From an uncultured Planctomycetaceae bacterium (GTDB lineage Bacteria > Planctomycetota > Planctomycetia > Isosphaerales > Isosphaeraceae), in the NCBI GenBank assembly GCA_963833985.1, contig CAWIAD010000002.1, forward strand, positions 1,216,001 to 1,280,000: a stretch of DNA of 64,000 nucleotides, read 5' to 3'. The position numbers were made by a program, and so were the translations under genes. Positions 27,637 to 57,911 of this stretch are shown here, in pieces (within the stretch, counting starts at the first letter, position 1; each line of letters begins with the position of its first letter). The notes beneath the pieces were generated by a model. That model was not told the DNA's origin. It saw only the letters and a list, made by a program, of their open reading frames with translations, and did no database searches.

Positions 27637-29046
27637 TTGGCTTTTCCAGAGAAGGCGGCTGCGAGCCCTTTGGCAGAGAGTGATCAGCCCAGCGAACTGG
27701 TCCGTACCCCACTCCCTGGACCTTTGGGCAGCATGCTCCTCGAGCGGATGAAGACGCATCCTTGCCTGGCCGGCTATACGGATCCGATGCAGGCATCAGA
27801 GCGGGTCTTCCTGGCGAGCCAGCATGATGGTTATCTCTGGGATGTGGATGGGAATCGGTTCATCGACTTCGCCTCGGGCTGGGCGACGAACAACGTCGGG
27901 CACGCCCCGGCGGAGATTGTTGACGCTGCGTCCTCGGCATTACGCGAGCTGGGAGCGGTTTGTTGCACCCCGGGATTCGTGCCCTTCATCCGTTATGAAT
28001 TCGCGGAGAGGCTCCTCACGACCTTCCCCGCCCACCTGCGGCGCGTGGCCCTCTGTGCGACCGGAAGCGAGGCCGTGGAGGCGGCGACGAGATTCATGCG
28101 CGCCGCGACCGGGCGGCCGAATGTGCTGACCACCTACACCAACTTCCACGGGTTCTCCTATGCGGGACTGGCCGCGGGTCCATTCCATGCCCCGTGGCGC
28201 GACACGGCCACGCAGGCGATTCCCTTCTATCTTTACACGCCCTACGCCACCTGCGGGCGTTGTCCGCACCGACTCGATTACCCCTCGTGCGATCTCTGGT
28301 GCGTGCAAGCCATCGAGGAGTATCTGCTGCGTCACCAGGCCGCACCGGAGACCGTCGCCGGGATGATCGTGGAACCGGTGCAAGGTGAGGCCGGAGTCTG
28401 GGTGCCGCCCAGGGAGTATCTGCCCCGGCTGGAGAAACTCTGCCGGAAGTATGGCTGGCTCATGTGCGTCGACGAGGTGGAATGCGGGTTCGGGCGCTGC
28501 GGACGGATGTGGGCGTTCGAGTCGAGTGGCATCTTGCCCGATCTGGTAATCGTCGGCAAGGGCATCGGCGGGAGTCTGCTGCCGCTGGCGGCAGTCGTGG
28601 GGACGCCGGAGGTCATGGACCGAAGGGTCGTCTGGGGTAGCACCTACGCAGGCCAGCCGGCCGCCTGCGTGGCAGCCATCAAGGCCCTGGAGCGACTTCA
28701 GCGCGACGGCCTCGTGGAACGGTCCGCCCGGCTCGGCGCCGCCGGACTGGAGCGGCTTGGACGCTTGTGCGAGAGCAGCACCATCGTGGGCGCGGCCCGG
28801 GGGCAGGGGCTATTCCTGGGGCTGGAGCTGGTCAACGATCGCACCGGCAACATTCCCTCGCCGGAACTGGCACATCGGGTTTATGACGAGTGCCTCTCTC
28901 GTGGCCTGTGCCTGCTCTTTCTGTCCGTGACTCCCACCGTGCGTGTGGCACCTCCCCTGGATATCCCCGAAGATTTATTCTTCCGGGGTCTGGGCATCAT
29001 CGAGAACGTTATCCAAAACCTGCTTCCCGACGCGTATCATTCATGA
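27637..29046 (+). CDS. Class III PLP-dependent aminotransferase (GabT-like)
   Basis: TPLPGP, DVDGNRFIDFASG, TGSEAVE, FHG, VEPVQGEAG, DEVECGFGR, VGKGIGG (PLP Lys). Start placed at a TTG with GGGAG RBS (uncertain). Confidence 0.88.
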   Translation: MAFPEKAAASPLAESDQPSELVRTPLPGPLGSMLLERMKTHPCLAGYTDPMQASERVFLASQHDGYLWDVDGNRFIDFASGWATNNVGHAPAEIVDAASSALRELGAVCCTPGFVPFIRYEFAERLLTTFPAHLRRVALCATGSEAVEAATRFMRAATGRPNVLTTYTNFHGFSYAGLAAGPFHAPWRDTATQAIPFYLYTPYATCGRCPHRLDYPSCDLWCVQAIEEYLLRHQAAPETVAGMIVEPVQGEAGVWVPPREYLPRLEKLCRKYGWLMCVDEVECGFGRCGRMWAFESSGILPDLVIVGKGIGGSLLPLAAVVGTPEVMDRRVVWGSTYAGQPAACVAAIKALERLQRDGLVERSARLGAAGLERLGRLCESSTIVGAARGQGLFLGLELVNDRTGNIPSPELAHRVYDECLSRGLCLLFLSVTPTVRVAPPLDIPEDLFFRGLGIIENVIQNLLPDAYHS

Positions 29047-29429
29047 TCAACCACCCACATAAAGTCGATGTGCTTGGCAGGCATCTGGTTGCCGATCTGA
29101 GTGGGATCAGGCAAACGCTCCTGCTTGATCCGGACGAGATCATGAACGCGCTTGAGCGTGCCGTTTCCTCGGCGGGGTATCATGTCGTTGATCGTCTCAC
29201 ACATGTCTTCAGCGAGTTCGGGTGCGGCTTCACGGGTGTGCTGATCCTGGCCCAGTCCCACGCAATTGTCCACACGTACCCGGAGGCGTGCTACCTGGCC
29301 CTGGACATTTTCGGCTGTGGAACCCATGACCCGCACGTGGTCGTCAATCAACTGATCCATGAATTGGGACCTCAATCAACCTGCTCTCGAGAGCTTGTTC
29401 GAGCGCCTGCCACCAGCGAGTGTTCATAA
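29043..29429 (+). CDS. speD: Pyruvoyl-dependent S-adenosylmethionine decarboxylase-like proenzyme
   Basis: GRHLVADL, GFTGVLILAQSHAIVHTYPE, LDIFGCG; ATGA overlap with the aminotransferase. Confidence 0.8.
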   Translation: MINHPHKVDVLGRHLVADLSGIRQTLLLDPDEIMNALERAVSSAGYHVVDRLTHVFSEFGCGFTGVLILAQSHAIVHTYPEACYLALDIFGCGTHDPHVVVNQLIHELGPQSTCSRELVRAPATSECS

Positions 29430-29458
29430 AGCCTTCTCGCATGGAATCGATCGTCTCG

Positions 29459-31330
29459 TCATTCTTCAAGTTCCATGCAGCAGGGCAGGCTGCCGATCGC
29501 GAACCGACAACCCTCGATGTAGACGAAGTCTGCGCGGAATGGTCTTGGCGGCCAGGGACCGCTCGCCTCGCAGACCTCCTCGCAGAATCCGGCTGAGTCG
29601 GCCGGCCAGTCCCATCGTGCACTCAGCGACGTGAGGGGCGGAACATGCAGCAGGACGGCTGCACCTCTGCGCAACGTCAGTGCCGGATCGATAGCGAATG
29701 ACCGAGGTGTTCGGCGGGTGAACCGGATGGGAGGAAATCCATCCGGCGCATCCTCGACGATCCCGCAACGCACGCAAGACTTCAGTCGTCTCGCCGACGC
29801 GCCCGGGATCCGCATCGAGTACAGTTCGGTGCACAGGGCCTGCCCGCAAACAGGACAGGGAGGACCGTGCGACGAGGTCTCCACCAGCTCGGCCAGCTTC
29901 TGCCAGGCATCGAAAGCGCGGCAGCCCCATGCCGAGAACAGATCCAGCAAGCTGCGGCGCAACTCGGATCTGGCGGCGTCGGCCCCGTCCCCGCAGTCGC
30001 CCCCGAGAAACATTCGCATCTGGAGCGCATCGATACTGCCCATGGCATGGTCGCGTCGCAGCTCCGTCGCAGGGGGCATGCGATTGGACTGGAGCTTGAT
30101 GATCGTCCTGATGAGATCGAGGTCGCCGGAGTCGGATGGGTCGACGGGCGGGACCTCTGGCAGCACGCAGGGCTGATCGGGAGGGACGGCTGACTGCTCC
30201 TGCCTTGGTCCGGGAAGCGGCACGCTGACGAGTGGATCTCCCAGCAGGCAGAAGCGCACGCCGAAGTGTTGCGCCGCGGGCGACCGTAAGAAATGGGTGA
30301 GGGCTGCTCCCACGGGAACTCCCCTGTCGAGGTGATCCGTCAGGTAAGCCGTCATCCGTGGAGACCCGTTGAACAAACCCCATGAAGTTACGACGGCCCC
30401 CAGACGGGGGTTGTTGGCGATGCGCGATGGGAGGGCCCAGGCCTGGTCGACGACCGAGGGCTGCAAGAGAACGCCCCAGCATGTGGCCCAGACGAAGATC
30501 CGCGCGGATAGATCGTCGGGGTCCATGAGCAGCTCGGACTGGAGCACTTCCTCGAGCGGCAAGTCATGCCGGTGGCAAATTCCCGTGACCTGGCAGCCGG
30601 GTGGGCGCAGGGGGTCCGGCCGAGGGGGCGGCCTGCGCATGGGACACAAGGTCAGCTTGCCCAGGAAGGCGTCCATGCCATCGGAATGTGAAAAAACGGA
30701 GAGCACCGCCGGACCACGACCGACCGCGTCCCGCAGTTCGGCGGCCAACGCCCGCGCCCCGAGAATCTCCCGGCCGGAGAAGGTGAACCTGGGCATCTCG
30801 AGTCCCGGGTAGAGCTCGATGGCCCGCGTCGGGGCCGGGCCTGCAAGCACCGCCGCCGCCGAACGAACCAGCACCTGGCCCCGCAGGCTGTCGCGGTCGC
30901 TTGCGAATAAAATACCGGTCGCCGGTTCCACGGGCTCGTCTGGATACAGGGCGTTCATCAATTCCAGGGTAAGTTGATCCGTGGAGGTGATGAGTACGGA
31001 AGGATGAGTCTGCCCGGCAAGCTGGCTTACGCTCTCGATGCTCTGATAGCGCCGGCCCGTGAGGTGAGCGTACAGGTTGCCAAGATCGCTTCCCAGGTGA
31101 TCCAGGTGTAGGCCGACGACGAGCGCGAGGTTTGCCGCGGGCGCGTCGGACCTAAGGTAAGTCTCCCGTTCCTCGCGAAGCTCGGCATGGAAGAGAGACG
31201 CAAGCTGCTTGAGTGACGCGAAGTCAGTCTCATTCTTGAGCGGCCAGACGGGTTCACCGGTACGGTTGACCAGAAGGTCCGTCGCCAGCGTCCATTGGAC
31301 CGGCAAGGCCTGGAGTTTTCGGTGCATCAT
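29459..31330 (-). CDS. Putative clan CD (C25/CHAT-like) cysteine protease with C-terminal zinc-ribbon motifs
   Basis: Strand-His LSVFSHSDG, strand-Cys IFVWATCWG, GAVVTSWG, closing FCLLGDP; CPVCG...CVRCG. Confidence 0.55.
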   Translation of the reverse strand: MMHRKLQALPVQWTLATDLLVNRTGEPVWPLKNETDFASLKQLASLFHAELREERETYLRSDAPAANLALVVGLHLDHLGSDLGNLYAHLTGRRYQSIESVSQLAGQTHPSVLITSTDQLTLELMNALYPDEPVEPATGILFASDRDSLRGQVLVRSAAAVLAGPAPTRAIELYPGLEMPRFTFSGREILGARALAAELRDAVGRGPAVLSVFSHSDGMDAFLGKLTLCPMRRPPPRPDPLRPPGCQVTGICHRHDLPLEEVLQSELLMDPDDLSARIFVWATCWGVLLQPSVVDQAWALPSRIANNPRLGAVVTSWGLFNGSPRMTAYLTDHLDRGVPVGAALTHFLRSPAAQHFGVRFCLLGDPLVSVPLPGPRQEQSAVPPDQPCVLPEVPPVDPSDSGDLDLIRTIIKLQSNRMPPATELRRDHAMGSIDALQMRMFLGGDCGDGADAARSELRRSLLDLFSAWGCRAFDAWQKLAELVETSSHGPPCPVCGQALCTELYSMRIPGASARRLKSCVRCGIVEDAPDGFPPIRFTRRTPRSFAIDPALTLRRGAAVLLHVPPLTSLSARWDWPADSAGFCEEVCEASGPWPPRPFRADFVYIEGCRFAIGSLPCCMELEE

Positions 31331-31942
31331 TGCTGTCCGCTCTCGAATCGGAGGACCTGGACAATGGCGGGCGCCTCACCCGACTACGAGTGCCACCGGC
31401 ACGGTATGATCTCCGTCGAGTGGTCGATCACGGGTCGCTTCGCCCCTTCCGGTCGCCATGCGCACCAGCTCATCGAGGAAATCATCATGCAGGACGGTTC
31501 GATTGTCAAAGTCTTCACCCTGTGCGGAAGCCGGCCGGGGCAGGCCCGATCCTCCGGCTTCACGCCGTCGTCTGCACGATTCTCGAAGCGCAGGCAGACC
31601 CGACGCTGAGAGCGAATGAAGGCGAAAACAAAAAATGCCAGTTCTCGCGTGGCCGTCCTTGACACCTTCATTATGAACCTCGTTCTGTCCGCGACTCGCG
31701 CGTGGCTCCCGAGCCAGCCAGGGAAATCCAGCAGGGACTTGATTTCTTTTGACAATGATTCCAGAACAGGGATGCCAGGGCGTGCCGCGATCACGCGGAG
31801 GCCTGCGCGATGCGGGCGGGATTCGCCACGGCCGTGGGAGTGCCGTCGCAATCTGCTGGTTTGAAGCCGGTCTGGCGGAGTGCATCGGCCAGGACCTGTG
31901 GTTGACCCACTGGAAGACCCTCCTCATGGAGATCCGGCCCCG

Positions 31943-32755
31943 ATGATCACGCGAGAGCAGGTGAATCGCTACAGTGAGCACGGTTACCTTGTCGTACCGA
32001 ACCTTCTGGGCGCGTCTGAGCTGGAGAAGTTGAGAGTCGCGGTGGCCGCTGTGGAACAGGCGGCAAGTGCGCTCGATGCGACCAATGATCGTTTCCAGCT
32101 CGAGGCCGAGCCCTGCGATGGCCGGAAAGTCGCCAACGCAGTCGCCGACCCGATCCTCGATCACCCCGGGTTCTTCGAGGTTCTCAGTCTGCCCCATGTC
32201 CTCGACGTCGTCGCGGGGCTTCTCGGTACGCCGAACGTCAAGCTCCACCACACCAAGCTCTTCATGAAATACCCCGGCTCTCCGTGGTCGATTCACTGGC
32301 ACCAGGATTTCTCGTATCTTCTCCACTGCAATTTTGACCTGCTGGCGGTGATGTTCATGCTCGATGGATCGGACGACGAGAACGGGGGCCTGAAGGTCGT
32401 GCCGGGCTCGCATCGCGAAGGACCGATCGAAGTGACAAATCCCGAGGCAGGCTGGATGATCGACCTGGCGCCCTGGGCCGCCGGACGTCTCGTGGAGTCG
32501 CTCACGGTCCCGCCTGGGGGAGCTTCCATACACCACTGCTGCCTGGTCCATTCCTCCGCCCCCAATCGATCCACGCGTCCGCGCCGGGCGTTCATCGTCG
32601 AATATTCCGCCGCAGACAATTATCCGATCGCGGGCAGGACTGACTACGCTGGCTATGGGACGATGCTCCGCGGTTTGGACCCTCGGAGAGCTCGCTGCAT
32701 CGCGGGAGACTGGCGCATCCCGCCGGCACGCAGCCGAAGTCGACACCGCCAGTGA
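31943..32755 (+). CDS. Phytanoyl-CoA dioxygenase family Fe(II)/2OG oxygenase
   Basis: YSEHGYLVVPNLL, WHQD, ENGGLKVVPGSH, VHSSAPNRS...RR. Confidence 0.9.
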   Translation: MITREQVNRYSEHGYLVVPNLLGASELEKLRVAVAAVEQAASALDATNDRFQLEAEPCDGRKVANAVADPILDHPGFFEVLSLPHVLDVVAGLLGTPNVKLHHTKLFMKYPGSPWSIHWHQDFSYLLHCNFDLLAVMFMLDGSDDENGGLKVVPGSHREGPIEVTNPEAGWMIDLAPWAAGRLVESLTVPPGGASIHHCCLVHSSAPNRSTRPRRAFIVEYSAADNYPIAGRTDYAGYGTMLRGLDPRRARCIAGDWRIPPARSRSRHRQ

Positions 32756-33137
32756 GCACCCGTTTCCGAGCATGAAGCCCGGCCCGGCCCTCAGGTCTCT
32801 GGTCATCGGGCCGCCGCTCCCAGAGACTGGCCAAGCAGGGCGTGCCCGTATTCGCAGGCGACGGGCGCGTGCACTGACCGGTCAAAGTGTGGCGCTGCGC
32901 CGTTGTCGCGACCGGCTGAGTGCGATGCTCCCATTGCCGAACGGAAAAGTTCGGGAGCCGCGGCCGGCGTTCCATGATTCATTCGGAACGAGTAGTGATC
33001 CAGAGCCTTGACACGGGCGTTCCGGCGCGTTCAAAATCATTTCGCTCAAGTCGGCATCGGAGATTCTCCGGTGCACGGACAACTCTATGTGCACCTCAAC
33101 GGGCCAGCAAATCCTTTCTCAAGGCCGGAGTGACACG

Positions 33138-33464
33138 ATGAGCGAACAAGATCGGATCAAGGACGCGCTCAGCAAGATGACCGAGGATCAGGTCGAGGCC
33201 ATCAGACGTGTATTGACATCCACGTACGAGGAAGGTCCCACGAAGCTCACGCCGGAGCAGATCAAGAGCCTGGCGGCTGAGTCTGCCGAATTCCACAGGG
33301 CACAGAAACAGGTGGCCGAAGCGGTCGGCGTGCTGTGGAACGCTCGTCTCGATCTGGCCATCAAACTCGGAGATCCGGAAGACGTACAGCGTGCCATGAT
33401 GCGACCGGTCGACTTTTACGACAACTGCGACTGCGGTGGCACCGTAGGCACCCAGTGCTGGTGA
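33138..33464 (+). CDS. Candidate RiPP precursor peptide (108 aa; helical leader, Cys/Gly-rich C-terminal core ending in Trp)
   Basis: GGAG RBS 7 nt before ATG; all three Cys lie in the last 12 residues (CDCGGTVGTQCW); directly upstream of SPASM radical SAM genes. Confidence 0.8.
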   Translation: MSEQDRIKDALSKMTEDQVEAIRRVLTSTYEEGPTKLTPEQIKSLAAESAEFHRAQKQVAEAVGVLWNARLDLAIKLGDPEDVQRAMMRPVDFYDNCDCGGTVGTQCW

Positions 33465-33651: not shown

Positions 33652-35037
33652 ATGAACGTAACGACCTGGATGCCATCGCGCTTCAACCTCGCAACTCGGG
33701 ACGCGGACGGTTCCCTGCTGCTCTACAACAGCTACATGGGCGCCTTCGCCCGGATCCCGGAGGCCGAAGTGCCACGGGTCCGATCGGCCCTCGACGGCGG
33801 ATTGTCCGAGGACCCCACTGGCATCCTGGCGGAGCTGTGCATCAACGGCTTCCTCGTACCCGACGGCGTCGACGAATTCAAGAGGGCCGAGGCGCTGCGG
33901 ACCGAGGAGTACACGACCAGCCGCGAATTACAGCTCGTGCTGCTTCCGAACGAGCAGTGTAATTTCCGCTGCAAGTACTGCTCGCAGACGTTTACACGAA
34001 AGAAGATGAAGCGGGAAGTCATTGAAGGTATCGTTGCGCACGTTCGATCGAGAGCTGCGGATCTGTCAGTACTCACGGTCGGGTGGTTCGGCGGCGAACC
34101 ACTCACCGCCATCGAGATCATCGAGGAGGTCGCAGGTCGCTTGCAGACGATCTGTGCAGAGTACGGGATCTATTACTCCAGCAGTATGACCACGAATGGT
34201 TACCTGCTGACGCCGCGGGTCGCGAAGATCCTCTTCCGCGCGGAGGTCCGAGGATTCCAGATCACGCTCGATGGTCCCCAGGAACAGCACGATCGGTTGC
34301 GGGTGCTCGGCGATGGCAAGACCGGCACCTTCAAGACGATCCTCAGCAACCTCAACGCCCTGCGCGACCAGCCGGAAGCGTTCAAGGCGGTCATCCGCGT
34401 CAATTTCGACGCGGAGTCGGTGGATTGCATGGACCCTTTCCTTGATCTGGTGCGCTCCGAGTTCGCTGCGGATTCGAGATTCTGCCTCGATTTCCACCCC
34501 GTGGGAAAGTGGGGCGGGCCCCATGACGAATACCTCTCGGTCTGCGGGATCGACGATGGCCGAACCTACTCGGTGGATCTGGCCAGGAAGGCGGCCGAGG
34601 GAGGGTTTGAACCTTACGCCCTGCGTGAGAAGCTCAAACCGCTTGGCAGCAAGTGCTACGCGGCCAGACCGCATTCGTTTGTCATCGGATCCGACGGGAC
34701 CGTCTACAAGTGTACGGTTGCGCTGGAAGATCCGAGGAATCATGTTGGCCGCATCACCGGCGAGGGCGCGCTGCTCATCGATGCCGACAAGCACGCTCAA
34801 TGGATCGGCACGGGAGACAATGAGGACGCCGGTTGCCATTCGTGTTTCTTCCGGCCGTCGTGTCAGGGGAACGCCTGCCCTTTACATCGAATGAACACGA
34901 GTGAGCGTCCCTGCCCGACGATCAAGACGAATATCGAACAGGTCCTGTACACGATCTCGGCAAGCCATGCCATTAAGTCGGCGGGCCGACGGGCCGAACC
35001 GGTGAAGGAGCCCGCCCATCTCACAGTCGATTCCTGA
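33652..35037 (+). CDS. Radical SAM/SPASM peptide maturase 1 with probable N-terminal RRE
   Basis: CNFRCKYC, WFGGEP, TTNGYLL, QITLDG; SPASM CYAA...GTVYKC and CHSCFFRPSCQGNACP..C; N-terminal SRFN...LLLYNSYMG. Confidence 0.92.
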   Translation: MNVTTWMPSRFNLATRDADGSLLLYNSYMGAFARIPEAEVPRVRSALDGGLSEDPTGILAELCINGFLVPDGVDEFKRAEALRTEEYTTSRELQLVLLPNEQCNFRCKYCSQTFTRKKMKREVIEGIVAHVRSRAADLSVLTVGWFGGEPLTAIEIIEEVAGRLQTICAEYGIYYSSSMTTNGYLLTPRVAKILFRAEVRGFQITLDGPQEQHDRLRVLGDGKTGTFKTILSNLNALRDQPEAFKAVIRVNFDAESVDCMDPFLDLVRSEFAADSRFCLDFHPVGKWGGPHDEYLSVCGIDDGRTYSVDLARKAAEGGFEPYALREKLKPLGSKCYAARPHSFVIGSDGTVYKCTVALEDPRNHVGRITGEGALLIDADKHAQWIGTGDNEDAGCHSCFFRPSCQGNACPLHRMNTSERPCPTIKTNIEQVLYTISASHAIKSAGRRAEPVKEPAHLTVDS

Positions 35038-35041: not shown

Positions 35042-36088
35042 GTGACTCGCATGGAAATCGCGGACGATGCGACGGCGTCCGGCGCGTCCGGGACCCTGTC
35101 GTCATTCTTCGCGGCGTGGATCGAGCCTTTGTTCCCCCGGGACGAGCAAACGCGGATGCTCGAGGGCTTCGCATTCCTCGTCGACCGAGCCTTTGCCGCT
35201 CCGCTCGGTCCGGGAAGTCGCAGGTCCAATCTCTGTGCGGACGGGACCCCGCTGGAGATGTCGCTGGCGCTTGACAACAGCGGTCGCTGGGCGATCCGGT
35301 TTGTATGCGACGTGGCGGCAGGGTCGACCGCCGACGAGTCGATCGGGTTCCATCGCGCACTTGCGGACAGGGTGATCCCGGACTCCGGTTCACGCGCGGA
35401 GGAACTCGACTGGCTCTTCGGCAAACACCTCTCGGGTGCGCTCGAAAGCTCGCGGTTCCGGGTCTGGTACGGGATGGGCTTTGCTCCTCAGCACATGGAT
35501 GTCGGTAAACTTTATTTCAATACCGAATGGTTGTCGGCGGTCCAGGTGCACGAGATCGCGGCTCGGTTTCTGTCGCCGGAGATGCTCGACGGCCTGGCGT
35601 CGATTCCTTTGCTGAAGAGGGAATCCTACGTCGGCGTCGGTTACGATTTTGACCGCGCAGGGCTACGAAAACTGAAAACCTATGTCAGATTGGCCGGGCT
35701 CGACGTCGCTGCACTCGAGAGCAGCGTGGACTGCCATTGTCGCGGCCGGCAGGGCCGCTTTCGGCAACTCCTGGAGAGGGTAGCCGAGGCCTGCGGTCGG
35801 CCCTACGAGGACAGCTTCGTCGCTTCCGCCGGCTACGTTCCTCGCTGGGGGAAGCGAGAGTTCAAGGTCTACCTCTCGCTGGCGGCCTGGGGCATACGCG
35901 ACTTCGCGGCGACGGCTCCGTTGTTGCAGGCGATTCTCGCCGGCTGGGGATTTCAGGCGGGCACTCTTGACACCTCACCCGGCCCCGCAGGGTGCGTGCC
36001 GACGCTCCTGGCGATCGGCGTGGATGATGATCGAGAGCTGGCGTCAATCTATTTCAAACCCGAGCTGGATCCCGGAGTGTGCCCGTGA
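35042..36088 (+). CDS. DMATS-type (ABBA barrel) aromatic/indole prenyltransferase
   Basis: SNLCADGTPLEMSL (the DMATS DG.P.E.S motif) and repeated K-x-Y strands KLYFN, KTYVR, KVYL, plus IYFKP. Confidence 0.7.
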   Translation: MTRMEIADDATASGASGTLSSFFAAWIEPLFPRDEQTRMLEGFAFLVDRAFAAPLGPGSRRSNLCADGTPLEMSLALDNSGRWAIRFVCDVAAGSTADESIGFHRALADRVIPDSGSRAEELDWLFGKHLSGALESSRFRVWYGMGFAPQHMDVGKLYFNTEWLSAVQVHEIAARFLSPEMLDGLASIPLLKRESYVGVGYDFDRAGLRKLKTYVRLAGLDVAALESSVDCHCRGRQGRFRQLLERVAEACGRPYEDSFVASAGYVPRWGKREFKVYLSLAAWGIRDFAATAPLLQAILAGWGFQAGTLDTSPGPAGCVPTLLAIGVDDDRELASIYFKPELDPGVCP

Positions 36089-42714: not shown

Positions 42715-42716
42715 GC

Positions 42717-48616: not shown

Positions 48617-48970
48617 TCAGGCGGCAGTCCCGGTCAGAGGGAGCCCGGTAAGGCTCCAGTGAGGAAGCCCACCCTGAAGGTAATTGATGCGAGTGACCCC
48701 ATGCCGCTGGAGCTCGTGGCAGGCGGCGAACTCCTCCTCCTCATTGTCGCCGACGACCAGGTAGTGCAGCCCCCGAGGGAGCGTGGGAAGCATTGCCGGC
48801 AATGACTCCAGGGGAACATTCCGCGCACCCTCGATGTGCCCCAGGGCGTACGCGGCTGGATGTCGGATGTCCAGAAGTTCGAGAGTGGGAGTACCCCGGA
48901 GGGAGTGATAGGCCTCGGTCGGTGTCAGGTCTCTCCATTCCCGGTTAAGTCCTCGGGGGCCCGGCGGCAA
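48617..48970 (-). CDS. Rhodanese-like domain (probably the C-terminal domain of the upstream decarboxylase)
   Basis: LLDIR..AAYALGHIEGARNVP and YLQGGLPHW; frame stays open upstream to ~49130. Confidence 0.75.
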   Translation of the reverse strand: MPPGPRGLNREWRDLTPTEAYHSLRGTPTLELLDIRHPAAYALGHIEGARNVPLESLPAMLPTLPRGLHYLVVGDNEEEEFAACHELQRHGVTRINYLQGGLPHWSLTGLPLTGTAA

Positions 48971-49007
48971 CGCTTCCTCCAGGCTGTCTGTCCTTGCCGG
49001 ATTGCCC

Positions 49008-50366
49008 TCAACCCTCGCTGGCGCCTGGCACGGGAATGCGAGCGTGATCCGCTCCTCCTCCCGCGTCTCGACGGCGCGAGGTGGAAACGAGCTGACGTCC
49101 GTCGTACGAAAGACCCCGCCGTCGAGGCTCGACGAGAATTTCTCTGGGCGGAGTCTGGTTGATGAAGTAGATCGGGCTACCTGTCAAACCGTAGGCACCG
49201 GAGCAGCAGACCGCCAGGAGATCCCCGACTTCCAGGGAAGGCAGCATGGCCTTGCGGGCAAAGGTATCGTGAGGAGTGCAAAGTGGTCCCGCCAGGCAAT
49301 ACGGTCGCTCTGCTCCGGCAGGCTTTGCGCCGGAGACCCTGATGATCTCATAAGGCTCGCCGAGAAGTCCGAGATGCCGGCATGCGCCGAGATTGTGATG
49401 CATACCGCCGTCACAGATCGCAATCTCGTCTCCTCCAGATGATTTGAGGTAGAGCACTCGCGTCAGATAACAACCGGCCTCGCCAGCAAGATAGCGGCCG
49501 GTCTCCAGCACGAACCGCGTCTCCTCGAAGCCAGCGCTTCCACGCAGTTCCACGAGCATGGGGCGGAGGCGCCGGGCGAGCGCTGGAAGGTCAACGGGCT
49601 CGGCCGCCACGGTATAGGGGATACCCAGGCCAGCACCGAGCACGAGCAGCTCAGGCCGGAGCCTGAACCTGGAAACGGCGGGAACGCATGCCCGCAGGAA
49701 CCGTCCCATGTTCTCGGCAATCTGGCCGGCATCACAAAACTGTCCACCTTGATACGTGTGAAAACCACGTAAACAAAGGCGGGGAAGGCGAGCAATCTGT
49801 TCCAGGGCGTCGTGGAAGCAGCTCTCGGCAATCCCGAACTTGTCGGGGATTCGGAGTGCCTGCTCGCTCGCAGGGGGCGCTGGCCTGGCGAGGGCCAGGC
49901 GAACCAGCACGGACTGCGGACTCTCGCCGTGCCCCGCCGGGACGTGGTGATGCAATCGTTCGGCCTCCTCCACGGATTCCAGCACAACGTAGCCGATCCG
50001 CTGACTGGCCGCGGCCCGCAGTTCCTTGTCGGTCTTGCCGGGACCTGTGAAGCTGAGTTGCTCGGCGGACCAGCCGGCCGCCGTGGCGAGAGAGATCTCT
50101 CCTGCGGACGACACATCCAGCAGCTCGGCGTGCCCACGGAGCCTGCTCAGGAGCGCGGGGTTGGGATTACTCTTGACGGCGTAGCTGATGTCCAGAATGT
50201 CGTCGAACGCGCGGCGCAGCATGCGAATGCGGTCGTGGATCTGATCCATGAAGTAGACGTAGCAGGGCGTCTCGTACCGCTCGGCGATTGCGCCCAGCAG
50301 CGGGTGCAAGAGGGCCGCGGCATCCGTGCCCGCAAGCTGGGGTAAGTTGATCCGCTTCATCTGCAT
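49008..50366 (-). CDS. Fold-type III PLP-dependent decarboxylase (diaminopimelate decarboxylase-like)
   Basis: TPCYVY, SYAVKSNP (PLP Lys), DVSSAGE, FTGPGK, KFGI, ETGRYL, AGPLCTPHD, GAYGLT. Confidence 0.9.
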   Translation of the reverse strand: MQMKRINLPQLAGTDAAALLHPLLGAIAERYETPCYVYFMDQIHDRIRMLRRAFDDILDISYAVKSNPNPALLSRLRGHAELLDVSSAGEISLATAAGWSAEQLSFTGPGKTDKELRAAASQRIGYVVLESVEEAERLHHHVPAGHGESPQSVLVRLALARPAPPASEQALRIPDKFGIAESCFHDALEQIARLPRLCLRGFHTYQGGQFCDAGQIAENMGRFLRACVPAVSRFRLRPELLVLGAGLGIPYTVAAEPVDLPALARRLRPMLVELRGSAGFEETRFVLETGRYLAGEAGCYLTRVLYLKSSGGDEIAICDGGMHHNLGACRHLGLLGEPYEIIRVSGAKPAGAERPYCLAGPLCTPHDTFARKAMLPSLEVGDLLAVCCSGAYGLTGSPIYFINQTPPREILVEPRRRGLSYDGRQLVSTSRRRDAGGGADHARIPVPGASEG

Positions 50367-50463: not shown

Positions 50464-51321
50464 CTATGTCGGGAAGATCGGTCGGAAATGCCTGCGCAGC
50501 CAGTCGTTCGCCTGCAAGTCAATGGCCAGAGTGATGCGATCTGTCGTGCCAAAGTTCCACATATTATGATAATATATTGTATTGAAATAATAGAGCGCAC
50601 CTGGCGGAAGCTGATAGATCTTGATGGCATCCTGGTTGGCCGCTACGAACATCTGGTACCACGATTCCATCTGGGCTCGCCCCACGCCTTCCCCGGCCCA
50701 ATCCTTCGTGGTGCAGAACCGACGATCCGGGACAGTGAACTCCTCGAGCTGCGTTGCCGAGCTGACCATGAGGAAAGCCTGGTCATTGGTGACGATCGGA
50801 ATCTGAAATCGCTTGATCTCGGGGCTGAGGTCGATGTCCGCGTGCAACGTGTAGCTGGTACCTGGCGCCCGTCGCAGCAGGCGAAACGAGACGATCTCAC
50901 ACGAGAAAGCCTCGAACAGCTCCTCGAGGTACGGGCAGCCGTCAAGGCGTTCCGCAGGCGGTTCGGGAGATCCGTGACCCTCAGGGAGGACCCAGTTGTT
51001 GCCGTGCTCCCTCCCCGAGGCCGAAAGCCGACGAAACGTGAGCGGCAGGCTGTGGCCGTACCGGCCCCGGCTCCAGTCCCAGCCCGCAATCGCGTGCCGC
51101 ATGTCGGCGACCAGGCGGTCCAGGTCAAGTTTCAAGAACGTGTAAAGGTCCCCATGAGCCGCGCGGCCAGCGATCGGGCGCACGATTGCCGGGTGCAGAG
51201 TCTCGACCAAGGATACTGGTGGAACGCTTGGTTTCCCCAAAGGACCTGCTCCTCGGCTCCTTGACCGGATGATTCCTCTGATTCGATCATCATCGAAGTC
51301 GACCACTCTGTTGCAGATCAT
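50464..51321 (-). CDS. Aspartyl/asparaginyl beta-hydroxylase-family Fe(II)/2OG oxygenase
   Basis: RLL...PG....LHAD, RFQIPIVTN, YYFNT..YHN..N.G..DRITLAID; ATGA overlap with the upstream gene. Confidence 0.78.
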   Translation of the reverse strand: MICNRVVDFDDDRIRGIIRSRSRGAGPLGKPSVPPVSLVETLHPAIVRPIAGRAAHGDLYTFLKLDLDRLVADMRHAIAGWDWSRGRYGHSLPLTFRRLSASGREHGNNWVLPEGHGSPEPPAERLDGCPYLEELFEAFSCEIVSFRLLRRAPGTSYTLHADIDLSPEIKRFQIPIVTNDQAFLMVSSATQLEEFTVPDRRFCTTKDWAGEGVGRAQMESWYQMFVAANQDAIKIYQLPPGALYYFNTIYYHNMWNFGTTDRITLAIDLQANDWLRRHFRPIFPT

Positions 51322-52406
51322 CCCGCTTCTCGGTGCTTCTCGGCGGCATCCGCGCGAACTTCCGCGTACACTGGAAAATCATCACCGATGCTCACACCAA
51401 CGACCATGGCGGTCACCGGACCGAGCGTCACACCACGGCCGGGCAACACCGGCTCTTCACGCACGCAGGCTCCGTCGCCCCGAGACAGCTGCACCAGGTT
51501 GAGGAAGATATTGGTCGCAAACGAGCCGGAGGGGACCTCCCGCATCGACGGATACGCTCTGCCTTGTTCATCGAGGACCCGGGGCAGAGATCTTCGCCTC
51601 CTCAGGGTCAGGCCGACCGTGTTCGAGCCTCCCGAGAGAAACGCCTGGGCCAGCTTGCCCTGGTAATCACCGAGGTGGCCGATATTGCTCAGATAGACGT
51701 ATTCATAACGCGACGATGCAGCCAGCTCGCGGATGTCAGCCAGACCGACGCGCAGCACCGTGTGACAAAGTCGTTCTTTAAGAAGATCATAGGTGTTTTC
51801 CGTAAGGAAAGCATCGATCCGCTGCTGTGCGGCCGGGTGATAGCACAGCCTGTGACGGACGAGCCTGGAGTTGTCGGCGTCCCGTGCGTTGACAGTCGCC
51901 AGCATGCGGTAATGCGGTTGCCGGAGCAAATCAAAATACGTCCGAGCCGGAGGTGAAAGCCAGGCGCGTAGGGACTCATATCCCGCTTCATCGAAGAAGG
52001 GCCCGCAATATGTGTTGTCGTTGATTTCGGGGAGCTTGAAGAGTCGCAAATACTCGATTAGCGACAATTGCTCAACGGCTAGGAATTTCAGCTCCGTCAA
52101 GAACAGCGCAAAGGGGGAAAGATCCATCACGCGAATCGAGGCGCAGCCCTTCGAGACGAAAAGGAGCGGCAGGTCCCCGCAGCCCGCAACCGTCAAGACG
52201 TTCCGGCCCGCGAGATCGACCGTCCTGGCCAGTACACCGAATGGGTCAGATGAGTTAACATAGAGAACAGTGCTCACGTCCTCAATCGATGTGAGCGTTT
52301 GTCCTGGCAGGCCGTCGGCGAGGCTGTGCATCAGGCAAGAGACGCGCTCCGCGGTGAGACCGGAGGAAGCGTACTCGGATTCCAGTTGCTCCGCTACAAA
52401 GCTCAT
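51318..52406 (-). CDS. DUF3419/BtaA-like SAM-dependent (3-amino-3-carboxypropyl) transferase
   Basis: VLTVAGCGD, VMDLSP...LTELKFLAV..L...EYL.LF and YVYLSNI match the DUF3419/BtaA pattern. Confidence 0.62.
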   Translation of the reverse strand: MSFVAEQLESEYASSGLTAERVSCLMHSLADGLPGQTLTSIEDVSTVLYVNSSDPFGVLARTVDLAGRNVLTVAGCGDLPLLFVSKGCASIRVMDLSPFALFLTELKFLAVEQLSLIEYLRLFKLPEINDNTYCGPFFDEAGYESLRAWLSPPARTYFDLLRQPHYRMLATVNARDADNSRLVRHRLCYHPAAQQRIDAFLTENTYDLLKERLCHTVLRVGLADIRELAASSRYEYVYLSNIGHLGDYQGKLAQAFLSGGSNTVGLTLRRRRSLPRVLDEQGRAYPSMREVPSGSFATNIFLNLVQLSRGDGACVREEPVLPGRGVTLGPVTAMVVGVSIGDDFPVYAEVRADAAEKHREAG

Positions 52407-53155
52407 GATGATTCCCCGTGCTCGCGGACCGGCAATCAACTGCGCCCTCGTGGTACGCCTCACTGGGGGTTACGCCAGAGAGTCTCTGCCAGGACTGAAA
52501 CGGCGGCCGACCGTGCCGTCCCGGGTCCCTGGCAAGCTCCACTGGGACCCGCTGCCCGTGCGGCCGGTCTTGAAGCAAGCGCTGCTCAGGCACCCTTCAG
52601 GATCAGGATCCTGCCACCTGGGACCGCTCGGCGAGAAGCAGAGCGGGATGACGGGGCAAGTCCTCATCATAGCGAGGTCGAATGGGCCGGTCAAAGCCGA
52701 GTTCTCGTAGCCCCTTCATGCTGCTCGATAGCCCAATCCGCTGGCGAAGGCCAGTGGAAACCGCATTCAGCATGATATAATATGGAAGTGCGACAATATA
52801 AGCAAACACAAAACTCAGTGCTGTCGCGAGTGATCACTGTCAGCTCCTGGATTGGCATCGGGCGGCTTCAATGGGGCCCGGATTCGCCTCTGTGTCATCC
52901 TCCCCGTGGTCATGGCGGCAGGGGAGGCCCGGCGAGTTGGCGCCCGAGCCCCATCCTGTAACGGAAACGGCTTGCTCAAGGACTGATCCGGTGCATAATG
53001 AAGAGCCGGAAGTCCAATCGTCGATCCGGCGCGTTCGGTCGGTATTTGCCCCTGGCTCAGGTCCTGTCACGCGCTGGACCCAGGCTGCGGTGGCAGGGGC
53101 GATACGGGCGATCCTTTCCACGAGCTTTTTGCCAACCCACGAGGATGCGGGACCT

Positions 53156-53533
53156 ATGGACCGACTGGCGGCGGATCAGGTGCACCTCATTCTGCAAGAC
53201 CTGCCTGAGTTCTCACCGCAAGGGCGCTCGGTGCTGCGACTCTACCGGTCGCCGGAGAGCGAAATCTTGCTCGTCTGCTGGGAGCCCGGGCAGGAGAGCT
53301 CCACACACGATCATGGATCGTCGGAGTCTATTGTCCATGTGCTCCAAGGCAGCCTGATTGCCAATCCGGGTGGCCGGCTGATCCGCGAGCGAGAAATGGT
53401 GATCACGCCGCGCGGTGCGATCCACCAGCTTGTGAACAGCTCTTCGTCTCGAGCCGTGAGCCTGCATGTGTACAGTCCCCGTTTGCACACCCCGATCTCG
53501 CCTCCCTTCAAGGACCTGACTCAGGTCCCCTGA
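53156..53533 (+). CDS. Cysteine dioxygenase-like cupin
   Basis: CWEPGQESSTHDHG, IHQLVN and AVSLHVYSP, the His triad and SLHVY motif of the CDO type I family. Confidence 0.8.
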   Translation: MDRLAADQVHLILQDLPEFSPQGRSVLRLYRSPESEILLVCWEPGQESSTHDHGSSESIVHVLQGSLIANPGGRLIREREMVITPRGAIHQLVNSSSSRAVSLHVYSPRLHTPISPPFKDLTQVP

Positions 53534-53658
53534 ATGGTCGATGGCGAGCTGAGTATGTTCCACTTTGGCTTCGGCCGCGCCGCCGGTGACAACCTCGTCT
53601 TCAGGTCGCGAGAATCAAGGATAGCCGCAGGGCCCCTGGAGCCGGACACGGAGATCCG

Positions 53659-55703
53659 TCAACACCGAGCCACCCGGGAGGCGCCGAGGACGCTTTCCGT
53701 GCTGTCGCCGGGCCCCAGGTCAGGACGCACGCGCACATAGCCGCGCACGTTACGGATGCGGTCGAACCAATGGTTGAACTGGCCGGCATCACAGGTCGCG
53801 GGATTCAGCGTGACCAGGTCTTCCTTCGGTAAGGACTCAGGATTTCGATCGAAAAGGTACTCTCCGGCGCGCAGAGTGCGAAATGGGACAGGTCGTGCAG
53901 GTAATTCGTGGCACTCCAGGCGGACACGTCGTGCCCGAGCTCCACGCGGTTGGGCCGACCATGATCGGCAGCGCCGTAGTATGCCAGTGTGAAATCTCTG
54001 AGTGACTCGAGCTCCACGGCCGTCGTCCTCGGACGACCCGGATCCGCGTCGGGAAGGCACTGGACCAGAGTCTCGAGCACCAGTTCGACGAGCGCCGGGA
54101 CGAGATCGTTTCGGATGAGATGGTGCGCGAAGAGGAAGCCAACGCGCGTGAGCCGATGCTCTCGCGAGAATCTCTGCCTGACCGCGCAGCAGCTCGTCAT
54201 GGGAACAGTAGAGCTCGGACTCGAGTTGATCTTGCAGGTAGGCAAGCGATGCCGACACGGCAGGAGATTGGGCGGCGCGCTTGATGACCCGGAAGAACAG
54301 CTCTGATTCGATGAGGCCTCGGGAACGAGCGAAGCGTGAAATGGGTTCACCCAGTCCGCAGTGGTGCCAGAACGCCGTCAGTGAATGAAAATGGCGGAGT
54401 GTGAAGTAGTCGGCCTGTGACAGGGTGCTGGTGGCGATGACGATCTCCTCGGATTCAATGACGATCTCTTTGCCGTCGAGCTCGAGGATGCAGCCGTCCG
54501 ACAGTCGAAACCGCGTCTCCAGCCCGAATTGCTCTCGCGCCCGGGGGGACGCGAGCTCGGTACCGGGTATGAGCACGAGATTGAACATATCAACCTTATC
54601 AACTCCTTGCTCGTAGAGGCTGCCCAGGCTGCGACGGAAGGAGCCGAGCGAGTCGCCGGGGAGCCCGACGATGAGGTCCGACGCGGTAAAAAGGTTCTTC
54701 GAGCGGGCGTAGTCCGCGAGGTCCCGATAGTCGGACAGCCGGATGTTCTGACGCTTGATGTTCTCCAGCACTTCCGCGTTCAGCGACTGGACCGCGAGCA
54801 GGAAGCGGACTTTCTTGCCGAGGATTTCCGCAATTTCCACAAGCCGTCGGCTCGAGTTCTTTGCGTACCAGAGGTGGATCTGAGCCGGATAGCCATGTGT
54901 ATTCCAGAGCTTCTCGAGGTGCGTGGCGATGGCGCGGTCGCGGCCAAGGATACCGAAGTTGGCGTCCGCGATGGTGAGATGGTCATTCCCGCGGCGCGCC
55001 GGGCAATATAGCTCAATTCCTCGCACACCCGATCGAAGCTGAATTGATGGATCTTCGCGACAGTCGCCGACCCCCAATTGCAGAACGTGCAAGAGAAAGG
55101 GCAGCCGCGGTTGGTCTCGACAATGGGCGTGAAACCCCGGTCGAGGAAACGATCGAGCAACCCGCTCAGGTACGGCGACGGCACCTGATCGAGATCCTTC
55201 AGGCGTTCCGGGGCACCGCCATGGCAGAGCTGGCCGTCGCGCAGGTAGCCCAGGCCAGCGCCTGGCAACGCATCGAGACTGCCGCCGAGGACGGCCTCGA
55301 TGATGGCGGCGAACGTCCGCTCGCCCTCGCCGATGACATAGTAATCCAGCAGGGGACGGTGTTTCAGGAACGCCCACGCGGCGGCGCTTTCAGCGTCATC
55401 GAAATGAGGTCCCCCCTGGATGGTGATCGTGGCCGAATTCGACTCCTTGGCGCGACGGAGGCATTCGTAAGAGAGCGCCGTGTTCCAGACATAGTTGCTG
55501 GAAGCAACGATGTCGTAGCGGGTCGCCGCCAACGCCGCCAGAATCCGGTCCACCTCGCGCTCGATGTCGATGCGGACCTCCTGGCCAAACCGGCTAAGGA
55601 CGTACGATGCCAGCAGGCCGGCGCCCAGGGGCATGTACCAGTACGGTGTATGCCTCCCGTAGACGGGGTCGATCAGCAGGATATGCAGTGGTCTGCTGGC
55701 CAT
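53659..55703 (-). CDS. Cobalamin-binding radical SAM enzyme 2 (frameshifts near 54990, ~54190 and ~53870)
   Basis: MPLGAGLLASY, SNYVWN, GGP, GEGE, ETNRGCPFSCTFCNWG, then IADANFG, QSL, DLIVGLPGD, LIPGTEL in the next frame. Confidence 0.85.
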
Positions 55704-55799
55704 GAGAACTTCCCGATCGGATGCTGCCGCTTGCGGCCTGACTCATGAGCGAGTTGCCGTGCAAGGGTTGGATATCAGATGTGTGAATTCACAAGAGCG

Positions 55800-56531
55800 T
55801 CATTCCAGACCGATCCGGCAATTGCCAAGGCAAACCTCCGTGACCCTGCCGTCGGTGCCGCAGTCCGTCCGCGCGTGCAGGAATCGGTGGTTCGAAAACG
55901 CAATCAATTCCCCCGCGCGGAGAGTGGCGCGCACGTGGAGATCGGTCCAGATCGGGCAGAGGCGGATGAGCTCGTCGAACAGCTCTCCTTCACGCTGAGT
56001 GAGCTCGAGGTGGCTGGCCTTGTCCGCGGCACGGCGGTCGAACACCCGGGTCACGCCCCGAGGATGATCGCGGGGCACCAAGGGTACGAGCGGCCTTCCA
56101 CCCTCCGCGAGGTTCAGGATCCGAGGCTCGTGGAGCATGTGAAGAATGTCGTTGCGCCCGAGCGACGTGAGCCGTTCCATCACGTCGTCGATGTGGACCA
56201 GGAGATTCGCACCGCCCGTCGGGTCGGGGTGCACACAGCGGATGATCGTATACATCGGAGGCACAAGATAACGCGTCATGTCAGTATGGAATGCCAGGAA
56301 ACCGTGTCGCTGGGAGGTGTATTGACCGGAATCCTCGTCGATGCGGCAGACCCAGACGCCCTCCTTCCAGAATGGATGATCCGTCCACGCCTTGAACCAG
56401 GGCATCAGCGCGGCGAGCAGCTCGAGCAGCTCAGCCGGTGCGTCCGGCAGCTTCTTGATCAAGACCGCCTGGGAATGTAACGGATCATGCGTGATCGGGC
56501 AGGAGTCGAGTTCGTCCCACGTGTCCACCAC
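55800..56531 (-). CDS. TauD/TfdA-family Fe(II)/2OG oxygenase
   Basis: LAFHTD, GGANLL, L.AGELIAFSNHRFLHAR. Confidence 0.82.
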   Translation of the reverse strand: MVDTWDELDSCPITHDPLHSQAVLIKKLPDAPAELLELLAALMPWFKAWTDHPFWKEGVWVCRIDEDSGQYTSQRHGFLAFHTDMTRYLVPPMYTIIRCVHPDPTGGANLLVHIDDVMERLTSLGRNDILHMLHEPRILNLAEGGRPLVPLVPRDHPRGVTRVFDRRAADKASHLELTQREGELFDELIRLCPIWTDLHVRATLRAGELIAFSNHRFLHARTDCGTDGRVTEVCLGNCRIGLE

Positions 56532-57137
56532 GCGAAGCCTTCGCGCCCGCCCCGGGACAAGGTTCGCTCAGGCTCCATCCGAATTGCGCGCTCGCTGCCA
56601 TTGTGGTCAGCCCCGTCATGCCCTGGTACCAACCCCGGACGGAAATCACGGAGAGCAGACAGCGCGTGCACCGAATCACCGACTGGCGATGCTCCGCACC
56701 AGAACCCGGTCGTAGGTTATCACAACCCGTCTGCGTATCAAGATGCCGCCAGGCGTCCCGCCGGGTCTCCCAAACAGGGATCGCCGAGTCTTTCATGCTG
56801 GCCCAGCGCGCTCAGCCCCGCTATGATCGTGGGCCGGGACAGGACCGCTGGCCGGGGCCACGACCCAGAGACCGCCCCAGCCCGGGTCGCACGCTTCCGC
56901 GATTGCTCATAGTCGACGCCGTCGCCTTTCCATCCCTGGGTACTGGAAGCTGAGACCTTCGCCGAGTTCGTTAGATCATCCTGCAAGCCTTGTCAGTCGC
57001 GGATTCGGGCAGACGGGCCTTTTGGAATCCATTGGTGGAAACCTGCTCTTGCGGGTACATCAGCACATCCAGACCCGCCTGCAAGCGGAAAAACGATCGC
57101 AAACCACCTCACCCGGCGCCGCCACCGAGGGACCCTC

Positions 57138-57911
57138 ATGACCGCGAATGTGGAGCATCCGGCAATCCGCTCAATGAACCTGGCCGATCTCGTCGAGGAA
57201 TTGGTCCAGCACCCGATCTACGCATTGATCCGCGACGAGGACTCCCTGTGCAGGTTCATGCAGAGCCACGTGTTTTGCGTGTGGGACTTCCAGTCGTTGC
57301 TGAAGGCCTTGCAGCGCCGGCTGACCTGCGTGGACATCCCCTGGCTACCTTCCGGCGACCCTGAAGCGCGTCGGCTCATCAACGAGATCGTGCTCGATGA
57401 GGAGAGCGACGCGATGCCGGACGGCGGTTATCTGTCACACTTCGAGCTCTATCTCCGCGCGATGCAGGTCTGCGGGGCGGACACCGGGCCAATCCTGGAG
57501 TTCACGCAATCGATCCGCGACGGCCGCACCGTGGATGACGCACTGGGCGAGACGGTGCTGCCGGACGGTGTCGCTGCGTTCGTCGCGCACACGCTTCGTC
57601 TCGCGCGGCACGCCGAAGTACACCGCATCGCCGCGGCCTTCACGTATGGCCGCGAGGACGTGATTCCGTCCATATTTCAGCAGATGGTGGGCCGTCTTTC
57701 GGCGCACTCCGGAAATCAGTGGGAGCTCTTCCTGCTCTACCTGAACCGGCACATCGAGCACGATGGGGAGCGGCACGGGCCGCTTTCCAGGGCACTGGTC
57801 GCGCGCTTATGCGGTGACGATCACAAGCTTTGGAGCGAGGCCGAGCAAACCGCGCGGGCCTGTTTGAGGGCCCGGCTCGACCTCTGGGACCGCATCGCCG
57901 CCCGGCTTTGA
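57138..57911 (+). CDS. DUF3050 family heme-oxygenase-like protein
   Basis: FMQSHVFCVWDFQSLLKALQ, INEIVLDEESD, SHFELYL.AM, FTYGREDVIP, YLNRHIEHDG..HG. Confidence 0.88.
   Translation: MTANVEHPAIRSMNLADLVEELVQHPIYALIRDEDSLCRFMQSHVFCVWDFQSLLKALQRRLTCVDIPWLPSGDPEARRLINEIVLDEESDAMPDGGYLSHFELYLRAMQVCGADTGPILEFTQSIRDGRTVDDALGETVLPDGVAAFVAHTLRLARHAEVHRIAAAFTYGREDVIPSIFQQMVGRLSAHSGNQWELFLLYLNRHIEHDGERHGPLSRALVARLCGDDHKLWSEAEQTARACLRARLDLWDRIAARL

Follow-up and report, generated by a model that had tools for sequence, protein, structure and literature searches.

The window analysed here, 64,000 nucleotides at positions 1216001-1280000 of contig C2 of genome G000 (a 10.2-Mb, two-contig, 96%-complete metagenome-assembled genome, MAG), contains a horizontally acquired block of biosynthetic genes that spans about 27.3-56.8 kb. 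The block carries the core genes of a peptide that is made on the ribosome and modified after translation (RiPP), namely a precursor, a radical S-adenosylmethionine (rSAM) enzyme with a SPASM region (rSAM1) and a prenyltransferase, together with pheS and pheT, which encode the only phenylalanyl-tRNA synthetase (PheRS) candidate of the genome. Below, G-numbers denote the genomes compared and L-numbers loci.

A foreign block with the only PheRS genes of the genome

On the left side, collinearity with the congener G004 (80-83% identity) stops after a GH92 gene at ~27,270, and the first gene past this break encodes an aminotransferase. In a DNA comparison with 120 genomes of the family, in which two candidates were scored per genome so that weak matches may be missed, the interval 27.3-47.0 kb found a match in a single genome, solely through a 67% piece of pheT, and the interval 47.0-57.95 kb in 20, of which 16 matched through the DUF3050 gene and the others through short pheS or intergenic pieces. 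Of the 23 genes or segments of the block, 21 have a GC content at third codon positions (GC3) lower than the median of the host, taken over 3,273 heuristically called open reading frames (ORFs); all six flank genes exceed this median, and DUF3050 stands at the 47th percentile. The window holds no tRNA, Rfam match or terminal repeat, and the block covers several transcription units.

Both PheRS genes are single copy in G000, and both lie inside the block. The island PheT is only 31-39% identical to its best matches among PheT proteins of the same genus, and all 12 congener matches start at about residue 160 or later, which indicates that congener PheT does not have the N-terminal domain of the island protein. 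This domain has no close match in the 120 family genomes (14 weak matches, best E 2e-10 at 26%). The named neighbours of the island PheT are sequences from Myxococcota and Deltaproteobacteria (39-50%), and a grouping with the PheT of its own genus is rejected (p-AU 1.7e-36 in the approximately unbiased (AU) test, on a quick tree of 16 rows); since the PheT trees are unrooted, we name no donor.

In congeners, the gene order is rpmI-rplT-pheS-transporter-pheT-kinase. This order is kept in G000 at C1:1293826-1300601, where the neighbouring genes are 60-92% identical to those of congeners, and what is left of native pheS is a remnant of ~170 nt (77-80% to congeners) and of native pheT one of ~33 codons, followed by 3.7 kb made up of two multicopy elements with copies at 92-99% elsewhere. 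The native PheRS genes have thus decayed in place. Because the native genes are scars and the island copy is single, no candidate PheRS other than that of the island is left, and its genes are now essential. It is also set apart from rplT, standing instead at the end of a same-strand run, DUF3419-hydroxylase-decarboxylase-rhodanese-pheS-pheT, with gaps of -4, 97, 228 and 108, and with foreign biosynthetic genes on both sides. The possibility that pheST are native housekeeping genes that happen to split the cluster is ruled out by the divergence of PheT, the native scars and the AU test.

A genome of the same class, G031, carries at L015 (G031:C1:910528-915858) a PheS 66% identical to the island protein, but its PheT is divergent (34-36%) and on a long branch; the class may thus have seen PheRS replaced on more than one occasion. 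Just outside the block, at 57807-58547 of the window, lies a YbaK-type aminoacyl-tRNA deacylase gene, a tRNA-editing gene beside the PheRS island; a paralogue 81% identical to it lies at C2:3585701, homologues are numerous in the family, and the gene is probably native.

The assembly is error-prone. A test of 179 congener ORFs identified orthologues of 90 in G000, and a frameshift broke 15 of these 90 (0.13 per kb), so that broken genes of this assembly are not to be read as pseudogenes without reads. The frame breaks in the block, taken from the assembly only, are one in pheS, one at the decarboxylase-rhodanese junction and three in the second B12-dependent rSAM gene. These five agree with the background rate (3.5 expected, P=0.27), as does the single break in pheS (P=0.125). 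Three or more breaks in one gene exceed that rate (P=0.003), and the second B12-dependent rSAM gene may therefore be truly dead.

A conserved precursor-rSAM1-prenyltransferase unit

The precursor has seven close homologues (eight matches including itself) and belongs to a family of 56 representatives at E values up to 0.001, for which no Pfam or NCBIfam model covers the sequences. A motif x-[DN]-[DN]-C-x-C occurs in 54 of 62 short sequences, with an aromatic residue at x in 37 of the 54, and 18 of the 62 end in Trp; in an alignment of 50 precursors, the two core Cys are the sole invariant residues. The precursor was not found in the 40 relatives and 400 genomes of the phylum that were searched. 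Ten loci outside G000 were considered, two of which are weak and without a cluster gene (L003 and L011, dropped), one ends just past the precursor, and seven are informative. A homologue of rSAM1 (56-68%) lies directly 3' of the precursor in all seven, and a homologue of the prenyltransferase (35-42%) follows it in L002, L005 and L006, that is, in three of the four loci long enough to tell; L009 continues for 1,570 bases past rSAM1 without one, and three other loci end too early. L002 comes from an alphaproteobacterial MAG, and the core recurs in metagenome contigs as well. A precursor ending in Trp is found in 5/5 loci with a prenyltransferase and is not found in L009, the long locus without it. 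Among plasmids, the best rSAM1 match reaches 42%, with none close, and the prenyltransferase has no match. Precursor, rSAM1 and prenyltransferase are therefore a conserved RiPP unit of an unclassified family.

rSAM1 combines a CxxxCxxC motif with C-terminal SPASM cysteines and is encoded next to a Cys-bearing precursor, an arrangement that resembles ranthipeptide and sactipeptide systems (TIGR04463; PapB, NF047865). Unlike their maturases, both rSAM/SPASM enzymes of the block fall far below the family cut-offs: described maturase models were missed at 220.6 against 525 bits (TIGR04463), 224.2 against 340 (PapB), 216.5 against 425 (SCIFF) and 224.6 against 518.7 (nif11), and rSAM1 scored 44-51 bits with GrrM/FxsB/YhhB-type models whose cut-offs are 310-445. 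PapB substrates carry a Cys-X3-Asp motif, which the core of the block precursor does not have. We infer that rSAM1 would link the two invariant core Cys as thioethers.

The initial annotation had called the third gene of the unit a DMATS prenyltransferase. As a single sequence it scores 20.2 bits in Pfam, below the 25-bit cut-off, and matches no PDB structure, so this label was not secured by the sequence by itself; a profile built from four sequences does match bacterial DMATS-type structures (E 5e-8 to 2e-5), and E72, R86, K212, Y214 and Y337 are invariant among the four rows, residues to which we presumptively assign active-site roles. It therefore resembles DMATS-type indole prenyltransferases (4yl7, PriB, 6-DMATS) in its profile match and in the Glu/Arg/Lys/Tyr pattern kept, and differs from the bacterial enzymes of this type in being tied to a peptide precursor that ends in Trp. 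A precedent exists in the prenylated lanthipeptides, where MppC is described as geranylating a core Trp in a leader-dependent manner (PMC12715784), and by this analogy the block enzyme probably acts on the C-terminal Trp of its peptide. The two systems share an ABBA prenyltransferase, a core Trp and a leader-bearing precursor cyclised by thioethers, which for the block are predicted; they differ in the ring former, here rSAM/SPASM rather than LanM, with no lanthionine synthetase among the block ORFs, and in the leader, which in the block is neither Nif11 nor NHLP.

G000 itself encodes a second member of the family on its other contig (L001:8723-~12950; C1 ~963.7-968 kb), with an 82-aa precursor ending in QCW, an rSAM enzyme 48% identical to rSAM1, and a prenyltransferase fused, with one frame break, to a part that resembles class II terpene cyclases. 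This last label presumably holds, going by a sequence motif, and the product of the second locus may be a peptide that bears a cyclised isoprenoid. In L002, the region after the core (13327-16933) encodes a 175-aa nitrile-hydratase-leader-like peptide, in which a C-terminal Trp motif is repeated, as well as a further rSAM enzyme, a GT2 glycosyltransferase and a rhodanese, and is possibly a second RiPP system.

Other genes of the block

The features of the block and its right edge are collected in Table 1. Pfam and NCBIfam bear out the gene order and, with few changes, most of the labels of the initial annotation. Its clan CD protease, the 623-aa His/Cys protein, has no Pfam, NCBIfam or PDB match; in its favour, L002 encodes, at a distance of 6 kb from the core, a homologue (27-29%) that keeps an HSDG / TC.G pair and the Cys clusters, a His-Cys motif pair so far conserved across two sequences only. 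Both domains of its decarboxylase-rhodanese fusion were found, but in different frames, and the two likely form one fusion gene. PheS and PheT were rightly in its gene list, without being recognised as the sole, foreign PheRS of the genome. DUF3050, which it had counted as part of the cluster, is rejected as a block member and is probably flank, since its DNA is matched in 16/120 family genomes.

Table 1. Features of the foreign block and its right edge (window coordinates)
Feature	Position	Strand	Basis and remarks
Class III pyridoxal phosphate (PLP) aminotransferase	27451..29046	+	PF00202 E 3e-79; longest ORF, true start probably later
SpeD-like S-adenosylmethionine (SAM) decarboxylase proenzyme	29043..29429	+	TIGR03330 90 bits, cut-off 75.65; QSH motif; AdoMet_dc
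623-aa His/Cys protein with Cys clusters	29459..31330	-	candidate clan-CD-like leader peptidase
PhyH-type iron/2-oxoglutarate (Fe/2OG) dioxygenase	31943..32755	+	PF05721 E 1e-29
Sigma-70-like promoter match upstream of precursor	33008..33037	+	consensus only, 10/12
108-aa RiPP precursor	33138..33464	+	helical leader with VLWNA.LD, core YDNCDC..CW
rSAM/SPASM maturase 1 (rSAM1)	33652..35037	+	Pfam Radical_SAM; best NCBIfam TIGR04463, 220.6 bits, cut-off 525
DMATS-type (ABBA) prenyltransferase	35042..36088	+	profile matches 4yl7, PriB, 6-DMATS
rSAM/SPASM maturase 2 (rSAM2), PapB/nif11-like	36361..37908	+	Pfam Radical_SAM; 224 bits, cut-offs 340 and 518.7
B12-dependent radical SAM enzyme	38016..39449	+	PF02310 + PF04055
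Nucleoside-diphosphate (NDP)-sugar dehydrogenase fused to 430-aa conserved domain	39470..42085	+	Pfam UDPG/MGDP dehydrogenase, N-terminal part
PIG-L de-N-acetylase	42082..42714	+	PF02585
Xylose-isomerase-like TIM barrel (AP_endonuc_2)	42711..43574	+	PF01261
Hexapeptide-repeat acyltransferase	43556..44707	+	PF00132
pheT, foreign type with N-terminal tRNA-binding domain	44780..47224	-	Pfam PheT domains; sole pheT in genome
pheS	47333..48387	-	tRNA-synt_2d; sole intact-type copy; frame break near 48.2 kb, probably assembly error
Alanine-racemase-fold PLP decarboxylase (BtrK-like) and rhodanese in another frame	48617..50366	-	Pfam Orn/DAP/Arg decarboxylase and Rhodanese; nearest PDB BtrK E 4e-49
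Asp/Asn-hydroxylase-like Fe/2OG enzyme	50464..51321	-	PF05118 24.7 bits, cut-off 22.6; weak, 36-residue match
DUF3419-like protein	51318..52406	-	PF11899 29.7 bits, cut-off 28.2; candidate SAM-derived aminocarboxypropyl transferase
Cysteine-dioxygenase-like cupin	52871..53533	+	PF05995
Second B12 radical SAM gene	53659..55703	-	three frame breaks; possibly true pseudogene
TauD-type Fe/2OG dioxygenase	55800..56531	-	PF02668; last foreign-block gene
DUF3050	57138..57911	+	probably flank; DNA matches in 16/120 family genomes, identity reaching 76% over 722 nt

The block enzymes carry catalytic motifs, by what we take to be the relevant patterns. The DUF3419-like gene is found in none of the 120 family genomes, and we assume DUF3419 to be the BtaA aminocarboxypropyl (ACP) transferase family. 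With Pfam, none of the block ORFs could be recognised as a glycosyltransferase, a transporter or a spermidine synthase, and no second precursor with a convincing ribosome-binding site and composition was seen in 15 intergenic stretches. Sigma-70-like sites number six, compared with 3.2 +/- 2.1 in shuffled sequences, which is not significant by itself.

The C-terminal 430 residues of the sugar-dehydrogenase fusion form a domain with eight homologues, two of them stand-alone, in which H305-H306, K309-K310, N341-E342, H346-K347-G348-H349 and a TDFR motif are invariant. It was not found in the 120 family genomes or in viral contigs and has no useful match in Pfam, PDB sequences or the Atlas. In a confident structure model with a predicted local distance difference test score (pLDDT) of 85, residues 186-421 resemble GAF domains at Z ~10 (VIA, Z 10.3, root-mean-square deviation 2.9 over 139 residues; other GAF matches, Z 10.0 over 154-163 residues), with a best Foldseek E of 0.017 and none below 0.001. 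The conserved polar cluster suggests that the domain may be an enzyme.

PheRS linkage and the predicted product

Longest-contig values point to a link between PheRS and the cluster outside G000. The best non-self matches of the precursor (P0002, 71%), the fusion (P0188, 82%) and PheT (P0066, 75%) are all listed with a longest contig of 52,693 bases, and the second-best matches of the fusion (P0189, 64%) and PheT (P0067, 59%) both with one of 14,534 bases. Chance repeats are rare, with two equal values among 118 PheT matches (119 listed), and here the ranks of the matches agree too; moreover, the island PheT, P0066 and P0067 form one clade with a support of 100 in the SH-like approximate likelihood-ratio test (SH-aLRT). 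From these equal values, it is very probable that one contig elsewhere carries precursor, fusion and PheT together, and PheRS probably travels with the cluster. The initial annotation had named sub-modules that never co-occur in other genomes as an outcome that would undo its reading; sub-modules do recur together, as precursor-rSAM-prenyltransferase, with or without the His/Cys protein, in the alphaproteobacterial MAG and in metagenome contigs. The RiPP-centred cluster that it proposed has a real core outside any Pfam or NCBIfam family. What found no support is the assignment of all 22 genes to one peptide, as the core occurs without the other genes in L002, L009 and the second locus of G000, and as rSAM2, the B12 enzyme and the sugar genes lack a close homologue in the outside precursor loci; nor was a transferase for the possible glycosylation of the peptide recognised in the block. 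With a core that is found by itself in other places, a pair of linked products seems more likely than a single one.

That the cell depends on the PheRS of the block suggests that the block makes something that attacks this essential enzyme. It is tempting to hypothesize, although we place this somewhat short of even, that the block directs a PheRS-directed or Phe-mimicking product, which would either accompany a thioether-linked, Trp-prenylated peptide or have that peptide as its scaffold, and that the island PheRS serves as self-protection that displaced the native enzyme. In this scheme, the foreign block would have brought pheS-pheT, with the native genes decaying in place until the island PheRS was essential, as the scars show, and the peptide would come from the RiPP unit that synteny defines. 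rSAM1 would tie the two invariant Cys to neighbouring residues as thioethers, the prenyltransferase would prenylate the C-terminal Trp, and the His/Cys protein would cut off the leader. By the equal longest-contig values, the sugar/acyl operon and pheST would move with the RiPP unit. In the last and weakest step, the compound of the island would inhibit PheRS, or be mischarged by it, and the island PheRS would protect its host and so make the native enzyme dispensable. If so, we would favour as that compound a separate product, to which the sugar, hydroxylase, methylase and aminopropyl genes would contribute, and give the fully tailored peptide a clearly smaller chance. A bolder version, in which a natural-product inhibitor of PheRS is derived from, or made next to, a new class of rSAM-crosslinked, Trp-prenylated peptide with the help of a new GAF-fold enzyme, and in which a resistant PheRS replaced that of the host and locked the pathway in, seems to us doubtful.

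Each ingredient has a precedent, be it rSAM RiPPs, Trp-prenylated RiPPs or aminoacyl-tRNA synthetase (aaRS) genes in clusters, and the latter are described as conferring immunity or supplying substrate (PMC8323819; 10.64898/2025.12.02.691738). Closest in outline are the tiarins, trifolitoxin-like RiPP inhibitors of aaRS whose clusters likewise hold an aaRS gene, proposed as a resistant copy of the target (10.64898/2025.12.02.691738). The block differs from them in that no YcaO or GNAT was recognised in it and in that tiarin clusters have a housekeeping duplicate in every case the account gives, while here the native copy is destroyed; the main text of that account, figures and supplements aside, names neither 'PheRS' nor 'phenylalan'. 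Cluster-borne aaRS genes also link the block to the aaRS-directed products microcin C, albomycin (AbmK) and agrocin 84 (AgnB2) (PMC8323819, PMC10491745). In microcin C, an inhibitor of the aaRS AspRS, an ACP transferase and a PLP decarboxylase carry out aminopropylation (PMC10491745, PMC8323819), and the DUF3419-like protein and the BtrK-like decarboxylase of the block may be a pair of this kind. Unlike these three systems, it has no recognised MccB-type (ThiF) adenylyltransferase and no siderophore or opine carrier genes, and unlike aaRS self-immunity clusters, which have a separate housekeeping copy, G000 has none. Listings and abstracts, the scope of our literature search, gave no account of the precursor family, the enzyme set or a cluster-borne PheRS.

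Several observations weigh against a PheRS-directed product. On the side of the target, the motifs of the island PheS match those of the sole PheS type of G031 (66%), with no special motif and no residue-level sign of resistance in this comparison; on the side of the product, the precursor core has no conserved Phe-specific feature, and Pfam and NCBIfam gave no recognisable adenylating enzyme, YcaO, PEARL, GNAT or exporter for the block. The linkage is read from equal longest-contig values and not from gene maps, the two chance repeats among the 118 PheT values show that equal sizes can coincide, and 14,534 is listed for no precursor match. Six of the eight fusion-domain homologues share no longest-contig value with the 118 PheT rows (of 6,450 matches), and some copies of the fusion therefore probably come without a PheT of this kind. 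L005 nearly duplicates L002, and the two loci are hence not independent. The core occurs without PheRS nearby (L002; in G435, PheT is on another contig, at 34%), and in L004, which encodes the closest precursor, P0002, the gene upstream of the precursor is RmlD-like, not PhyH.

Some of these observations lend strength to the strongest alternative, in which pheST were the donor's housekeeping pair beside a cluster and replaced the native genes by drift, with the block being a RiPP unit plus unrelated tailoring genes. An island PheRS of an ordinary clade type, a core that stands alone elsewhere, the different gene just upstream in L004, the missing PheT link of six fusion homologues and the several transcription units would all fit such a passenger. 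However, adjacency seems to be kept down to 59-64% identity, and pheST are detached from rplT with foreign biosynthetic genes on either side, and we think this explanation unlikely, if a serious competitor.

A separate alternative concerns the RiPP chemistry only. Instead of thioethers, rSAM1 could form an aromatic three-residue cyclophane on Y-D-N, in keeping with the aromatic residue before D-N or D-D in 37 of the 54 motif-bearing precursors; but the residue is not aromatic in the other 17, both Cys are invariant, and models of cyclophane maturases stay well short of their cut-offs (TIGR04261, 44 against 310), which leaves the cyclophane rather improbable. Similarly poor are the prospects of a supply role, in which the island PheRS would give Phe-tRNA or Phe-AMP, or charge a Phe that bears a hydroxyl or methyl group, so that an amide bond could be formed in a tRNA-dependent way; Phe might, for instance, be placed onto the free amino sugar that the dehydrogenase and PIG-L would yield, with the GAF-like domain as transferase. 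Here, the clearest co-travel of PheT is with the sugar fusion, the fusion domain has invariant His and Lys residues, and AbmK of albomycin is reported to both supply substrate and protect (PMC8323819). Yet no known tRNA-dependent transferase family was found in the block with Pfam or NCBIfam, the fold of the fusion domain matches sensory GAF domains only, and the native PheRS could have provided Phe-tRNA. That the block is a chimeric insert and native pheST lie in missing sequence is very improbable: although this is a MAG with 3.9% contamination and frequent indels, the native site is assembled with its degraded remnants and multicopy elements, a paralogous precursor-rSAM locus lies on the other contig, and the left flank is collinear with G004.

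Whichever of these explanations holds for pheST, an rSAM/SPASM enzyme and a DMATS-type prenyltransferase are brought together in an unclassified RiPP family of 56 representatives, whose three-gene core could be expressed directly. Even as a passenger, pheST would plainly exemplify how a foreign copy in a cluster displaced an essential gene and left scars that can still be seen. If a resistant PheRS did replace that of the host, the pathway would be missed by searches built on duplicated housekeeping genes: target-directed mining, as described, ranks clusters by such duplication (PMC13515044), and a cluster whose native copy was lost escapes this filter. The only natural PheRS-directed compound named in the review consulted is ochratoxin A (PMC7916415).

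Elsewhere in the window, a DDE_3 transposase gene (18919-20064) has at least three copies at 99-100% in G000, and the stretch 7054-15005 encodes, at low GC3, a 1492-aa VWA protein and a protein with an IcmF-related N-terminal domain. The segment 62396-63990, which has no Pfam match, recurs at 81-89% identity in 11 genomes of the family that belong to different genera, and is probably a mobile element.

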